From an uncultured Gammaproteobacteria bacterium (GTDB lineage: Bacteria; Patescibacteriota; Patescibacteriia; UBA9934), in contig CAZTKG010000005.1 of assembly GCA_964613815.1 (NCBI GenBank), forward strand, positions 22,026-86,025: a stretch of 64,000 nucleotides of DNA, in the 5' to 3' direction. Positions 1,356-22,403 of this stretch are shown here, in pieces. Position 1 is the stretch's first letter. The number at the start of each line of letters is the position of its first letter. The notes below the pieces were generated by a model. It worked only from the letters and a program-made list of their open reading frames with translations, had not been told where the DNA came from and did no database searches. The position numbers and the translations under genes are program-made.

Positions 1356-1431
1356 TGGTGGAGTCAGCGGGAATCGAACCCGCGACTGCTAGTGTCAAGT
1401 TAGCTGAGGTTACCACTACCTCCATGACCCC
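1356..1431 (-). tRNA. tRNA gene, 76 nt with encoded CCA. Manual fold gives a class-I tRNA with UGA anticodon (Ser-like loop CUUGACA) and a G3-U70 acceptor pair. Identity uncertain.
   Basis: Sense strand GGGGTCATGGAGGTAGTGGTAACCTCAGCTAACTTGACACTAGCAGTCGCGGGTTCGATTCCCGCTGACTCCACCA. Perfect T-arm (GCGGG-TTCGATT-CCCGC), D-arm GAGG/CCTC, acceptor GGGGTCA/TGACTCC with G3-U70. The anticodon stem has one A-C mismatch. Confidence 0.6.
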
Positions 1432-1557: not shown

Positions 1558-2097
1558 TTATTTCTTCACTTCCTTGAGTCGCTTTTTGTACTTTCCGCGG
1601 AGGTAGTTCAACTTTGCTCGGCGGACTCGGTATTGTTTTACGACTTCTACTTTTGAAAGGTTTGGAGATGCTAGGGGGAAGATCTTTTCTACCATCCAGC
1701 CTTTTGAGTCTTTTCGGACGGTCATTGTTCGGCCGATTTTCTTTCCCTTGATTCCGATGATCATTCCTTCGAAGACCTGTACTCGCTCTCGGGGCTGACC
1801 CTTTGGTGAGACGTCTTTGATTCTTTCGTGGACTCGGATGACCATTCCTGGCTTGAGGTCTCGGTTTGGGAGCTCTTCTACGACCTCTTCCTTTACCTCT
1901 TCGGCAGGCTCTTCTGCTGCAGGCTCATCTGGTTTTGGTGTCTCCTGCTGGTCTGATTCGGCCTGCTCTTTTGATGGCTCTGCTGATTTTTCCTCTGGGG
2001 CTGGAGTTGTCTCTTTTGGCTCATCGGCTGGTGCTGATGGCGCTGGAGCGTCAGCTGGCTTTTCTTCCGCCTTGATTTCCTTGTTGTCGTTTTCCAT
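1558..2097 (-). CDS. rplS: 50S ribosomal protein L19 with a ~70-aa acidic Pro/Glu/Ala-rich N-terminal extension
   Basis: C-terminal 110 aa match the L19 fold signature (VFEGMIIGIKGKKIGRTMTVRKDSKGWMVEKIFPLASPNLSKVEVVKQYRVRRAKLNYLRG). The N-terminus is low-complexity (EEKPADAPAPSAPADEPKE...). Confidence 0.85.
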   Translation of the reverse strand: MENDNKEIKAEEKPADAPAPSAPADEPKETTPAPEEKSAEPSKEQAESDQQETPKPDEPAAEEPAEEVKEEVVEELPNRDLKPGMVIRVHERIKDVSPKGQPRERVQVFEGMIIGIKGKKIGRTMTVRKDSKGWMVEKIFPLASPNLSKVEVVKQYRVRRAKLNYLRGKYKKRLKEVKK

Positions 2098-3883: not shown

Positions 3884-3959
3884 GGGCGCGTAGCTCAGCG
3901 GTTAGAGCGCGGAGCTTATATCTCCGTGGTCGATGGTTCGAATCCATCCGCGCCCACCA
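3884..3959 (+). tRNA. tRNA-Ile with apparent UAU anticodon (tRNA-Ile2 type)
   Basis: GGGCGCGTAGCTCAGCGGTTAGAGCGCGGAGCTTATATCTCCGTGGTCGATGGTTCGAATCCATCCGCGCCCACCA. The cloverleaf is canonical: AC stem CGGAG/CTCCG, loop CUUAUAU giving anticodon UAU. The body resembles tRNA-Ile(GAU). Confidence 0.75.
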
Positions 3960-20503: not shown

Positions 20504-20509
20504 ACTTTG

Positions 20510-20926
20510 TATTCAGGAACGTCATAAGCCGAATTCTGTGATCCGCAAGCGGATGACGATCATTTATCTAGGACGACTGTTGCCAGCCGCCTCGAGCGAG
20601 CTACCAAATTTGCTCTTGCACCAGAATGGGTTTACCACGTACTTGCATCACTGCAAGACGAAGGGCGTAGCCGGTATGTGATAGACACATGCGACATCTC
20701 CCTACTTTTCACGTTTGATCCCCGAGGGGATTAGTATAGTCTCTGCGGCACTTTCCCTAGGTTTCATCAGACTGCCAAGGATAATGATACCAATCCTTCA
20801 CGTTCTGATTATGTCCTGGTCGCTGTTAGCGACGTTCTTTTTTGACACGGGTTACCCGCGTGCCAGGTGTTCGGACTTTCCTCCAGACTTCGAAAAGACT
20901 GGCGATCGTCTCGGTTCCTGAACGTG
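20510..20926 (-). ncRNA. rnpB: RNase P RNA (bacterial type A)
   Basis: On the minus strand: GGAGGAAAGTCCGAAC (P4 5' strand), GGTAACCCG, GGTAAACCCATTCTGGTGCAAGAGCAAATTTGG, ACAGAATTCGGCTTATG (P4 3' strand), and the P1 pairing GTTCAGGAAC/GTTCCTGAAT. Confidence 0.8.
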
Positions 20927-21112
20927 TGGAAGATAGCATTTTTATGGGGGTTTGTCAATGCGCCTTGATTATTGAACTGATTTGACAACGCCTTCTTTTT
21001 TTGATTCAATGAGCACATACAGTGAGGTTCGAATAGAATCTAACTCTGGATGACAACAAGATCCCCTTTACAGTTTTATTACTGTGAAGGGGTCTTTGTT
21101 TTTCTTGACTTC

Positions 21113-21188
21113 TGGGCACGTGGAGGTAATGGCAACCTCACTGTTTTTGTCATCCAGAGATGCGGGTTCGAGTCCCGTCGTGTCCACC
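21113..21188 (+). tRNA. tRNA-like gene (76 nt, encoded CCA, G3-U70, A73); the anticodon stem has only 3 bp, so possibly a pseudogene or regulatory tRNA-like element
   Basis: GGGCACGTGGAGGTAATGGCAACCTCACTGTTTTTGTCATCCAGAGATGCGGGTTCGAGTCCCGTCGTGTCCACCA. Good acceptor, D-arm and T-arm; AC arm CUGUU-UUUGUCA-UCCAG is poorly paired. Preceded by a promoter-like TTGACA-17-TTCAAT at ~20978-21006 and an upstream segment complementary to its 5' half. Confidence 0.4.
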
Positions 21189-21287
21189 ACAAAGCCCTAA
21201 GTCAAGACCATTAATCCCGTAAATCCGGGGTTTTTGGTTTAGCTTTTTGTTGAATATATTCCGTTAAAATGCTTAAATGTAAGCCTT

Positions 21288-22403
21288 ATGCGAGTTGCTC
21301 TGATTCATGATCATCTGACGCAGAATGGGGGTGCGGAGCGGGTTTTGGAGGCGTTTCAGGCCATGTGGCCGGAGGCGCCTACTTTTACGCTTTTGTATGA
21401 TTCTCGGACGATGGATGAGACGTTTGGGCACCGGGATATTCGGCCCTCTGTGTTGCAGCGGATGCCGCTTTCGCTTCGGCGGCCTCGGTGGTATTTGCCG
21501 CTGATGCCTGTTGCGACGGAGAACTATGACTTGCGGAATTTTGATGTGATTGTTTCTAGCTCTAGTTCGTTTTCGAAGGGGGTTGTGCCGGGGAGTGATG
21601 CGATTCATGTTTGTTATTGTCACACGCCGACGCGGTATCTTTGGTCAGATACGCATAGCTACGTAAAGGACTTGCGGGCGCCGAAGATACTGAAGCGGGC
21701 GCTTCCTCCGCTTTTGAGTCGGCTTCGGGTTTGGGATCATAATGCAGCGCAGCGCGTTGATAACTTTATTGCGAATTCGGAGACGGTGCGGCGGCGGATT
21801 ACGAAGTATTATCAGCGGGAAAGTGATGTGATTCATCCGCCGGTTGATATTGATCAATTTCATCTTTCGCATAAGCCTAAAGAATATTACTTGATTGGGG
21901 GACGGCTGGTTTCTTATAAGCGATATGACTTGGTGATTGAGGCTTTTAATAAACTTCGACTGCCTTTGAAGGTGTTTGGGAGTGGGCCTGAGCAGATGCG
22001 GCTTCGGGCGATGGCTGGGTCGAATGTGCAGTTTTTGGGACGGGTCTCGAATGAGGAACGCGCTCGACTTTTTGCGGATGCGATTGCGTTTTTGAATCCT
22101 CAAGAGGAGGACTTTGGGATTACGCCGGTGGAATCGATGGCTGCCGGGCGGCCGGTGATTGCTTATCGGCGCGGAGGCGCCACGGAGACCGTGGTTGATA
22201 GTGTGAGTGGAATGCTTTTTGAGGAGCAGTCTTGGGAGGAGATTGCGGCTACGGTCTTACAGATGCAGAAGATGACGTTTGATCCGGAGCGGATTCGGGC
22301 GCATGCGGAGCAGTTTTCGCTGCAGAATTTTCATGAGAAGATGCGGAATTATGTTTCTGGGGCTTGGCAGGAGCATCAGCGGAAGGTCCTTGGGGAGATT
22401 TGA
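21288..22403 (+). CDS. Glycosyltransferase family 4
   Basis: GT-B fold with the Glycos_transf_1-like C-terminal domain (EDFGITPVESMAAGRPVIAY). Confidence 0.8.
   Translation: MRVALIHDHLTQNGGAERVLEAFQAMWPEAPTFTLLYDSRTMDETFGHRDIRPSVLQRMPLSLRRPRWYLPLMPVATENYDLRNFDVIVSSSSSFSKGVVPGSDAIHVCYCHTPTRYLWSDTHSYVKDLRAPKILKRALPPLLSRLRVWDHNAAQRVDNFIANSETVRRRITKYYQRESDVIHPPVDIDQFHLSHKPKEYYLIGGRLVSYKRYDLVIEAFNKLRLPLKVFGSGPEQMRLRAMAGSNVQFLGRVSNEERARLFADAIAFLNPQEEDFGITPVESMAAGRPVIAYRRGGATETVVDSVSGMLFEEQSWEEIAATVLQMQKMTFDPERIRAHAEQFSLQNFHEKMRNYVSGAWQEHQRKVLGEI

Follow-up and report, generated by a model that had tools for sequence, protein, structure and literature searches.

Several described systems offer points of comparison for the locus considered here. 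In the immI operon of phages P1 and P7, the antisense C4 RNA lies upstream of its target on the same transcript, acts through two short segments that vary among relatives, and is processed by RNase P. Type III toxin-antitoxin loci such as ToxIN consist of a promoter, an inhibitory RNA, an intrinsic terminator, and the inhibited product, with the inhibitor made in excess. In antisense pairs of the CopA/CopT type, hairpins of the same stem swap strands after nucleation at a U-turn loop and form side-by-side helices at a four-way junction. The tRNA-Gly that serves Fem transferases in Staphylococcus and the tRNA-Other of Bacillus cereus keep their aminoacylation identity on a body with deviant decoding positions. 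External guide sequences direct RNase P to cut 5' of a duplex by means of a 3' strand of 7-10 nucleotides (nt) and (A)CCA paired with the sequence upstream. We analyzed a stretch of 64,000 nt, hereafter the window, from contig CAZTKG010000005.1 of GenBank assembly GCA_964613815.1 (positions 22,026 to 86,025), where a preliminary description had noticed a tRNA-shaped element with its own promoter and a complementary upstream leader, close to rnpB. The element proved to be part of a cassette of ~260 nt that occurs twice in the window. Our tentative reading is that the locus is a self-contained two-RNA cassette, neither a decoding tRNA gene nor a pseudogene, in which the leader would capture the lower half of a tRNA-like RNA and serve as its antisense governor.

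Architecture of the cassette beside rnpB

Read along the plus strand, the cassette beside rnpB (copy 1) opens with a TTGACA promoter and continues with the two leader segments and terminator T1; an outer stem then surrounds the 76-nt tRNA-like, and terminator T2 ends the series. The promoter (20982-21010) combines a -35 hexamer TTGACA (20982-20987), a 17-nt spacer, and a -10 hexamer TTCAAT (21005-21010). It had been recognized previously at a position about 4 nt too low, and a promoter scan omits it because its -10 hexamer lacks an A at position 2. Leader segment 1 (core ACAGUGAGGU, 21014-21029) sits at the predicted 5' end of the transcript and is complementary to 21134-21149 (inverted repeat I3, 16 nt, 88%), which comprises the 3' strand of the D stem, A26, and the 5' strand of the anticodon stem of the tRNA-like. 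Leader segment 2 (CUCUGGAUGACAACAA, 21044-21059) is complementary to 21144-21159 (inverted repeat I2, 16 nt, 94%) and faces the anticodon loop, the 3' strand of the anticodon stem, and the start of the variable loop. The two complementarities run in crossed order relative to the tRNA-like. The preliminary description had made out this crossing arrangement against the 5' half and anticodon arm, and the segments turn out to be longer than it had noted (16 nt each). A small leader hairpin, AGGUUC-GAAUA-GAAUCU (21025-21041), is present in minimum-free-energy folds, and its 5' strand overlaps segment 1. In the free leader, a short stem that joins the variable parts of both segments encloses this hairpin; RNAalifold recovers the enclosing stem, with covariation, from 26 leaders.

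Downstream of the leader, T1 (21063-21103, plus strand) is a hairpin of 12 bp that runs into UCUUUGUUUUU and has A-rich sequence ahead of it; the terminator scan matches 21063-21092 (12 pairs, 6 GC, T run), where a strong hairpin with a T run had been seen before. The 5' strand of the outer stem (UCUUGACUU, 21103-21111) lies 2 nt upstream of G1 of the tRNA-like, and its 3' strand (AAGUCAAGA, 21199-21207) is followed by a CCA at 21208-21210. This inverted repeat (I1) brackets the tRNA-like and, together with the CCA, makes up a second, acceptor-like end. The 76-nt tRNA-like itself occupies 21114-21189, 1 nt higher than first placed (21113-21188), and its tRNA shape is confirmed by ARAGORN (anticodon UGU) and by the Rfam tRNA model (40.1 bits). 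The second terminator expected after it is present as T2 (AAUCCCG-uaaauc-CGGGGUU and a U run, 21213-21238), for which the scan reports a terminator-like site at 21213-21232. Leader and tRNA-like together fold with z = -5.4 relative to shuffled sequences.

A family of related cassettes

A species-representative genome collection scanned with a D-arm pattern yielded 32 loci, 17 of which held 18 recognizable cassettes, and a metagenome scan with a looser D loop contributed 19 more loci, chiefly from groundwater. Beyond the window copies, ~34 cassettes were obtained from Uhrbacteria/Patescibacteria genomes and groundwater metagenomes. Those of the genome collection reside almost entirely in metagenome-assembled genomes labelled Candidatus Uhrbacteria or Patescibacteria, and a few in genomes labelled 'uncultured Gammaproteobacteria'; the bL19 protein encoded in the window is closest to Uhrbacteria/Patescibacteria proteins, and we assign the window to that group accordingly. 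The D-arm pattern had no match in a viral contig collection, and a phage origin was therefore rejected.

We built a family covariance model from 29 members, leaving out the window copies. It assigns 89.2 bits to copy 1, 92.2 bits to copy 2, 86-95 bits to other members, and at most 59.4 bits to the canonical tRNAs of the loci searched, the best of which is the host tRNA-Ala; given this gap, the family is cleanly separable from ordinary tRNAs. Both window copies have the family layout, namely two segments complementary to nt 21-31 and 33-46 of the tRNA-like, T1, the outer stem, and T2. The flanking signals recur across the family. In 30/32 cassettes, TTGAC(A/G) precedes the first leader nucleotide by 34-38 nt (mode 37), with the 17-nt spacing to a TnnAAT-like hexamer, often with TG before it; from this fixed distance, segment 1 begins at the predicted +1 to +3. 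Segment 1 has five variable nucleotides and then UGAGG(U), part of whose GAGG is used by the short hairpin, and segment 2 has 5-7 variable nucleotides and then UGUCA(A/C). All 32 cassettes have an equivalent of T1, made up of an A-rich tract, a strong hairpin, and a U tract, with hairpin free energies of -14 to -56 kcal/mol. The 5' strand of the outer stem lies 2-9 nt ahead of G1 and its 3' partner 0-75 nt past the inner CCA, and another CCA follows the outer 3' strand within 5 nt in 23/31 cassettes, compared with 28/620 shuffles (4.5%). A second terminator, T2, closes the cassette.

The preliminary description had considered that the element might be a tRNA-Ala pseudogene. A decaying pseudogene of this kind, or a selfish repeat without host function, would suit the patchy distribution of the family, the empty site downstream of rplS in four related genomes, the one clearly degenerate copy (L004), and the small hairpin insertions in several others. 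We nevertheless consider this explanation very improbable, as the family is kept across many species with compensatory changes in four helices, in the acceptor, T, and leader helices, and its identity nucleotides are invariant. The fixed promoter spacing and both terminators are retained in ~30 independent cassettes. Each genome or contig holds one or two copies only, none flanked by terminal repeats or target duplications, and the cassettes are not recent copies of each other, their variable arms differing throughout.

Individual members depart from the common form. The degenerate copy at L004 (478-553, minus strand) scores 73.9 bits, has no GGG start, ends in CCACCG, and has repeat elements where the leader would be expected, a picture of decay unlike that of the window copies. 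In a member from an Uhrbacteria genome (L016, 1815-1897), a hairpin-rich insertion of ~83-88 nt (exact boundary uncertain), possibly intron-like or mobile, splits the T arm of the tRNA-like but leaves the leader, T1, the outer stem, and the 3' end undisturbed. Short hairpin elements have been inserted past the inner CCA and ahead of the outer 3' strand in L026, L033, L034, L042, L044, L045, L046, and L048, for example 'ccttcgc...ggctggcaagcca' and 'cgtcgttcgcgaacgacg', the latter with a duplicated GGTCCACCA behind it in L033 and L046; these elements resemble small repeats that target this site. The T1 hairpin has grown to more than 100 nt in L029, L036, L043, L044, and L050, with leader segments and U tract unchanged, through tandem repeats of the ttggaaat/ttccaaat type in L029, L036, L043, and L050 and through another repeat (ttacgcttttac-type) in L044.

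Leader and tRNA-like as matched partners

RNAduplex energies were calculated for every leader against nt 22-45 of every tRNA-like. Cognate duplexes average -34.3 kcal/mol versus -22.6 kcal/mol for non-cognate ones, 29/33 tRNA-likes pair best with their own leader, and none of 20,000 permutations reaches the observed cognate mean. For the analysis of covariation, segment 1, segment 2, and the tRNA-like of 32 cassettes were joined in fixed register (alignment A2); a cassette with one extra base pair (L047) and the one with the T-arm insertion (L016) were left out. The anchors of this alignment are GAGG and the loop-facing hexamer only, and its stem-facing columns are unbiased. Segment 1 is 95.9% paired with nt 22-31, with five pairs changed on both sides, and segment 2 is 91.1% paired with nt 33-46, with eleven pairs changed on both sides, some of them at anticodon-loop positions. 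Each of the ten core pairs of segment 2 forms in 94-100% of the 32 sequences (98% overall). The two-sided changes in the leader helices thus amount to 16 pairs and include positions that face the 'anticodon'. The covariation score of 0.504 compares with 0.176 for shuffled alignments (0/500) and 0.058-0.118 for slid controls; the pairing that the preliminary description had proposed is therefore conserved, with covariation, in relatives. G·U pairs outnumber A·C mismatches 40:6 in the heteroduplex, and this excess places the pairing between two plus-strand RNAs and argues against a DNA-level or minus-strand feature. As judged from the alignments, the leader:tRNA-like helices are held by selection more strictly than the anticodon stem of the tRNA-like itself. 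The architecture and conservation of the cassette, the covariation, and the cognate specificity are demonstrated by these comparisons, as are the identity elements presented in the following section.

The geometry of the complex can be followed from the free forms of both partners. The stem of the free leader and the anticodon stem of the tRNA-like consist of mutually complementary strands, and a crossed order is the outcome to be expected of a strand exchange between two hairpins that share a stem. In the free leader, the UGUCAA of segment 2 is left single-stranded; its counterpart is the anticodon loop, a pre-formed U-turn. Opening costs ~11 kcal/mol for the leader and ~11 kcal/mol for the D and anticodon arms, and the estimated net free energy of the complex, in which linker strain is ignored, is negative in 32/32 cassettes with a mean of -15.8 kcal/mol. 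A further leader motif, YCUYCA, able to pair with nt 8-13 (UGGAGG), occurs in 16/32 leaders compared with 22% of shuffled linkers, and in neither window copy. A search of the 64-kb window for other leader targets found none beyond chance. The TTGACA-like sequence of the anticodon loop was also considered as a DNA promoter and rejected: neither strand offers it a -10 partner, and covariation ties the loop to the leader at the RNA level.

An alanine-type acceptor end and a relaxed anticodon arm

The tRNA-like of copy 1 has the acceptor stem GGGCACG/CGUGUCC with G3·U70, A73, and an encoded CCA, a D stem GAGG/CCUC, a T arm GCGGG-UUCGAGU-CCCGU, a 4-nt variable loop, and U14. Its anticodon arm, CUGUU-UUUGUCA-UCCAG, holds three Watson-Crick pairs and C37; both the alanine identity elements and the defective 3-bp anticodon arm, as reported earlier, can be read directly from the sequence. 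The two window copies share the 7-bp acceptor stem, a T arm with GUUC, and G18G19, and both are called by ARAGORN. Against a gathering threshold of 29 bits, the Rfam tRNA model (RF00005) gives them 40.1 and 45.7 bits, where the canonical window tRNAs for Ile, Val, and Ala reach 71-73 bits.

Across the family (n=32), conservation is unevenly distributed. G1-C72, G2-C71, and G3·U70 are invariant in 32/32 members, as is A73-CCA; covariation affects pairs 4-7 of the acceptor stem, which is 99.6% paired, and the T stem, which is 100% paired. The anticodon stem is just 79.4% paired, with 31:39 unpaired in 15/32 and 29:41 in 9/32 members. Position 37 is C in 29/32 sequences of alignment A2 and U in two more. 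U14 is found in all members, including those obtained with a pattern that leaves position 14 free, and the universal U8:A14 tertiary pair is therefore broken. The 'anticodons' include UGA (the commonest), UGC, UGU, UGG, UAA, UCA, CGA, GAG, and UAG, with the cognate UGC in four members, and they differ even among syntenic orthologues.

The invariant acceptor-end set reads as alanine identity. G3·U70 and A73 suffice for the alanylation of a minihelix, and the anticodon arm is dispensable for AlaRS, EF-Tu, and RNase P; all the features that these three recognize are retained, namely G1-C72, G2-C71, G3·U70, A73, CCA, the T arm, and the elbow with G18G19. Since the identity set is kept and these three partners ignore the anticodon arm, we infer that the RNA would be matured and alanylated and is not selected as a codon-specific adaptor. 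On the same sequence features, an ordinary decoding tRNA is unlikely. A special case would be a working tRNA that places alanine at Ser, Thr, or Pro codons (UCA and ACA for the window copies), as regulated mistranslation or as a toxic activity held in check by the leader. Most members do join alanine identity to non-alanine anticodons on a complete cloverleaf with U33, a 7-nt anticodon loop, elbow nucleotides, and CCA, and the succession of antidote RNA, terminator, and harmful product would recall the layout of type III toxin-antitoxin loci. We regard this as improbable, however, because decoding tRNAs carry a purine at position 37, where nearly all members have a pyrimidine, and the anticodon stem is mismatched in many of them and U14 breaks the U8:A14 pair. 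Moreover, orthologues do not keep the same anticodon, and four members have the cognate UGC; hence no specific recoding is under selection. Standard tools call these genes tRNA-Ser, tRNA-Thr, tRNA-Pro, tRNA-Leu, or tRNA-SeC, and such calls skew tRNA inventories and genetic-code inferences for the genomes that carry them.

A second cassette behind the bL19 gene

A second copy of the cassette lies on the minus strand at 1310-1555, and the window tRNAs, when aligned, reveal its relation to copy 1: the 'tRNA-Ser(UGA)' at 1356-1431 (minus strand) has the same unusual D arm, UGGAGGUARUGGYAACCUCA, as the tRNA-like at 21114-21189. This 20-mer occurs exactly twice in the window versus 0.03 expected occurrences, so the likeness of the two copies is not due to chance. 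The promoter of copy 2 (1527-1555; TTGACA-17-TAACAT with TG), evident from the promoter scan and the open reading frame list, begins 3 nt past the bL19 stop codon. Its leader (1485-1520) presents segment 1 (GUUAGUUGAGGC, 1520 to 1509), a hairpin, and segment 2 (UCAAGCUAGUGUCACA, 1500 to 1485), both of which are part of alignment A2. The pairing portions GUUAGUUGAGG and GCUAGUGUCA match the anticodon arm of copy 2, not that of copy 1, with duplex energies of -16.5 and -17.5 kcal/mol. T1 of this copy spans 1445-1479 (9 pairs in the terminator scan, tail CGUUUUUUGU).

The tRNA-like of copy 2 (1356-1431) is called 'Ser tga' by ARAGORN and scores 45.7 bits with the Rfam tRNA model and 92.2 bits with the family model. 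It has the acceptor stem GGGGUCA/UGACUCC with G3·U70, A73, CCA, the shared D arm, C37, and the 'anticodon' UGA, and at 76 nt it is without the long variable arm typical of serine tRNAs. Its anticodon arm, GCUAA-CUUGACA-CUAGC, is unlike that of copy 1. The outer 3' strand (UUCGGGAUC) and T2 occupy 1310-1345 on the same strand; the former pairs with GACCCGAA at 1443 to 1436, and UCA stands in place of CCA after this outer stem. The two window cassettes are paralogous, with the same layout, differing anticodon arms, and leaders that each fit their own arm. Neither a leader nor an outer or flanking stem of this kind accompanies the window tRNAs for Ile, Val, and Ala.

A proposed model for leader capture and its alternatives

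Under our preferred reading, with the leader as antisense governor of the tRNA-like, the course from transcription and termination to alanylation, together with the regulatory direction and role, is deduced from sequence features along these lines. A strong promoter of the sigma-70 type would set the predicted transcription start directly at segment 1. Most transcripts would end at T1 and release a small RNA of ~85 nt, and read-through transcripts would pass the outer stem, enter the 76-nt tRNA-like, and end at T2. In the manner of classical antisense systems, pairing would nucleate where segment 2 meets the exposed anticodon loop, and segments 1 and 2 would then exchange the D and anticodon stems for two intermolecular helices at nt 21-31 and 33-46. 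This capture may take place in cis on the read-through transcript, in trans by the T1-terminated small RNA, or in both ways. With its lower half captured, the tRNA-like would be unable to act as a ribosomal adaptor, and its acceptor/T minihelix would stay intact and chargeable with alanine. As T1 between leader and tRNA-like would keep the leader in excess, the leader is read as an antisense governor that keeps the free tRNA-like scarce. It may do so by sequestration and possibly by RNase III-type co-degradation of the quasi-continuous ~25-bp duplex. The outer stem and its CCA are probably a second RNase P site or guide helix, or else an exonuclease stop, that would order maturation. Antiterminator alternatives to T1, and base pairs that would join the leader to the CCA at the 3' end, were looked for by eye and rejected, with just 4-5 bp of inconsistent complementarity.

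Several points weigh against this reading or limit its reach. The members were collected with patterns that require a GGAGG...CCUC D arm, which makes the invariance of the D stem a sampling artefact; for the same reason, the family has been seen only through D-arm-fixed patterns and may be wider. In the alignment, segment 2 was anchored on its complementarity to the anticodon loop, in four sequences by hand, and the loop-facing columns are biased accordingly. The crossed helices would be pseudoknot-like in cis, and RNAfold and cofold score one helix at a time. The sequences are compatible with action in cis or in trans, and with repression or the assembly of an active complex.

The assembly of an active complex is the main rival to this reading. 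The leader and the tRNA-like might together form an RNA of two pieces, with the leader supplying a double-helical stalk for an alanine-charged acceptor/T minihelix and its helices permanently taking the place of the D and anticodon arms, a possibility that we consider unlikely. The same limited likelihood applies to the roles proposed for such a complex: a non-decoding alanyl carrier, ribosome rescue in the manner of tmRNA, alanine tailing, or a donor for a non-ribosomal or cell-envelope aminoacyl transferase. Consistent with this view, the heteroduplex is better conserved than the anticodon stem of the tRNA-like and is thermodynamically favoured in all cassettes, read-through would co-transcribe both pieces and ensure 1:1 assembly, and the YCUYCA pairing with nt 8-13 in half of the leaders would complete the capture of the lower half. 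Alanine identity is invariant, as in tmRNA, and local alignments of the Rfam tmRNA model cover the acceptor/T part and, in three members, outrank those of the tRNA model. The tmRNA-model scores are all below the gathering threshold, however (RF00023 on copy 1: 27.7 bits versus 47, with two ends aligned only), and ARAGORN reports no tmRNA in the window or in the 32 loci, in agreement with the earlier judgement that the element is not a tmRNA. Inspection by eye found no mRNA-like or tag-like frame, resume codon or its context, or pseudoknots in the leaders or between the CCA and T2, and neither SmpB nor a Fem-type transferase is among the nearby encoded proteins. A terminator between the two pieces would also make the leader superstoichiometric, which suits a regulator better than a subunit.

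The leader might instead have no function of its own and serve only as a cis-acting folding or processing device, its pairing and the outer stem fixing the shape of the precursor for ordered maturation by RNase P and 3' exonucleases. Leader and tRNA-like do belong to one transcription unit with no promoter between them, and the outer stem followed by CCA resembles a guide or substrate helix of RNase P. U is the commonest nucleotide at position -1 of the tRNA-like, and the window encodes a type A RNase P RNA, which reads RCCA. This explanation is decidedly unlikely in our estimate, since a strong terminator parts the leader from the tRNA-like in every member, an arrangement that would be wasteful for such a device and predicts a free small RNA. 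The canonical tRNAs of the same genome manage without it, and a heteroduplex of 24-26 bp would need help to dissociate after processing.

Genomic context

Copy 1 lies between rnpB and a glycosyltransferase cluster, and copy 2 lies directly after the bL19 gene. The rnpB gene, encoding a type A RNase P RNA, occupies 20509-20921 on the minus strand, immediately upstream of the cassette and on the other strand as previously stated. A promoter-like TTGACA-17-TATCTT with TG (20958 to 20930, minus strand) immediately precedes it, back to back with the promoter of the cassette. Elsewhere in the family, homologous cassettes adjoin unrelated genes in either orientation. When 645 flanking open reading frames were clustered, no protein family was common to more than 6/36 cassettes, and thus there is no universal partner; shared neighbours reflect local synteny in four loci, with an IleRS-type synthetase upstream and a UDP-glucose dehydrogenase downstream. 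The rplS loci of four relatives have no cassette downstream and hence supplied no new members independent of the D-arm pattern. The variable neighbours and the empty rplS sites indicate that the cassette is an independent gene of patchy distribution and not a cis-regulator.

These data bear directly on the suggestion that the element could be a cis-regulatory switch, akin to a T-box or attenuator, for the glycosyltransferase operon downstream. Such a riboswitch would explain a leader and terminator upstream of genes on the same strand, with a tRNA involved. Its probability is nonetheless very slight, and the lowest that we assign to any explanation: a second terminator ends the cassette ahead of the gene, the genes downstream differ at every locus and are often on the opposite strand, copy 2 and the homologues stand beside unrelated genes, and the tRNA that would be the ligand is encoded within the element itself. 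The T-box model (RF00230) has no match at E ≤ 10 in 20900-21300, nor at E ≤ 1 in seven other members. The pairing extends over 10-16 nt and does not take the form of a codon-like specifier with an NCCA bulge.

Other features of the region are recorded here for completeness. The four relatives with empty rplS sites keep the upstream synteny of pseudouridine synthase, kinase, and rplS. The bL19 gene of the window (1558-2097, minus strand) encodes an N-terminal extension of ~70 residues rich in acidic residues, Pro, and Lys; the homologues of relatives measure 160-200 residues, which suggests that the extension is common in the group. At 50318-50648 (plus strand), three tRNA-like genes lie in tandem (Rfam tRNA 49-57 bits) and, in contrast to the remaining window tRNAs, do not encode CCA: ARAGORN labels those at 50318-50388 and 50477-50548 'tRNA-???' with two-base anticodons, and the third is a 95-nt 'tRNA-Leu(CAA)' with ~22 extra nt after the D arm. 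The 23S rRNA gene (54965-58508, minus strand, 3.5 kb) contains a group I intron at 55479-55782 (Rfam 72.4 bits), and 5S rRNA is found at 54766-54872; such introns in rRNA typify bacteria of the candidate phyla radiation. The tRNA at 3884-3959 (plus strand, 73 bits) is a tRNA-Ile whose anticodon is UAU. Reading AUA through tRNA-Ile(UAU) is uncommon in bacteria, and the same pair of tRNA-Ile(UAU) and tRNA-Val(GAC) is present near the cassette of L040.

Comparison with known systems

At the gathering threshold, Rfam reports the tRNA family alone on copy 1. In E-value mode, the interval 20900-21300 returns sub-threshold matches to skipping-rope and to the ends of tmRNA, which leave the leader uncovered, and Rfam holds no family for the leader. 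Full-text literature searches, whose coverage is incomplete, yielded no description of the cassette. The skipping-rope match (RF02924) reaches 31.7 bits for the window copy against a gathering threshold of 36.7 and does not recur in seven other members. Skipping-rope RNA is tied to a specific neighbouring protein (PMC5737381). The likeness lies in a cloverleaf-like four-way junction followed by a terminator, and the cassette is without the neighbour protein.

If the proposed capture is true, the cassette would be the first case known to us of a bacterial RNA dedicated to pairing with, and remodelling, an alanine-accepting tRNA-shaped RNA. It would represent either RNA-only control over a chargeable tRNA mimic or a two-piece alanyl carrier, and either outcome would bear on the roles of extra tRNA look-alikes and on quality control in the reduced translation apparatus of the candidate phyla radiation.

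Among RNAs that involve tRNA structure, tmRNA (ssrA) shares with the tRNA-like an AlaRS-type acceptor with G3·U70, A73, and CCA, a canonical T arm, and no expected decoding role for an anticodon. The cassette differs in having a full 76-nt cloverleaf and a separate complementary leader, with no reading frame or pseudoknots. T-box leaders likewise carry a terminator and pair with a tRNA-shaped RNA, including its anticodon loop. They read a folded tRNA through 3-4 nt and the NCCA end, whereas the two segments of the cassette would pair over 10-16 nt and have to open the D and anticodon stems; the cassette also lacks Stem I, a specifier, and the T-box sequence, its partner is self-encoded, and no amino-acid-related gene lies downstream. 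None of the non-proteinogenic or pseudo-tRNAs is known to come with a complementary leader of its own, an outer stem nested around it and bearing CCA, or an anticodon that varies freely.

Among antisense systems, C4 RNA targets the ribosome-binding region of an mRNA, whereas the target in the cassette is a tRNA-like, and it is this tRNA-like and not the antisense RNA that is the obvious RNase P substrate. ToxIN differs in that the product of the cassette is an RNA and not a protein endoribonuclease, inhibition would occur by base-pairing, and toxicity is only hypothetical. The crossed topology of CopA/CopT is found again in the cassette, although here the partners lie side by side on the same strand and nucleation would be loop-to-single-strand, not loop-to-loop. 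The outer stem recalls an external guide sequence, except that its helix, a putative guide, lies in cis around a complete tRNA-like. We thus rate the cassette as what appears to be a new kind of RNA system assembled from familiar principles, of which each known system matches one aspect only.

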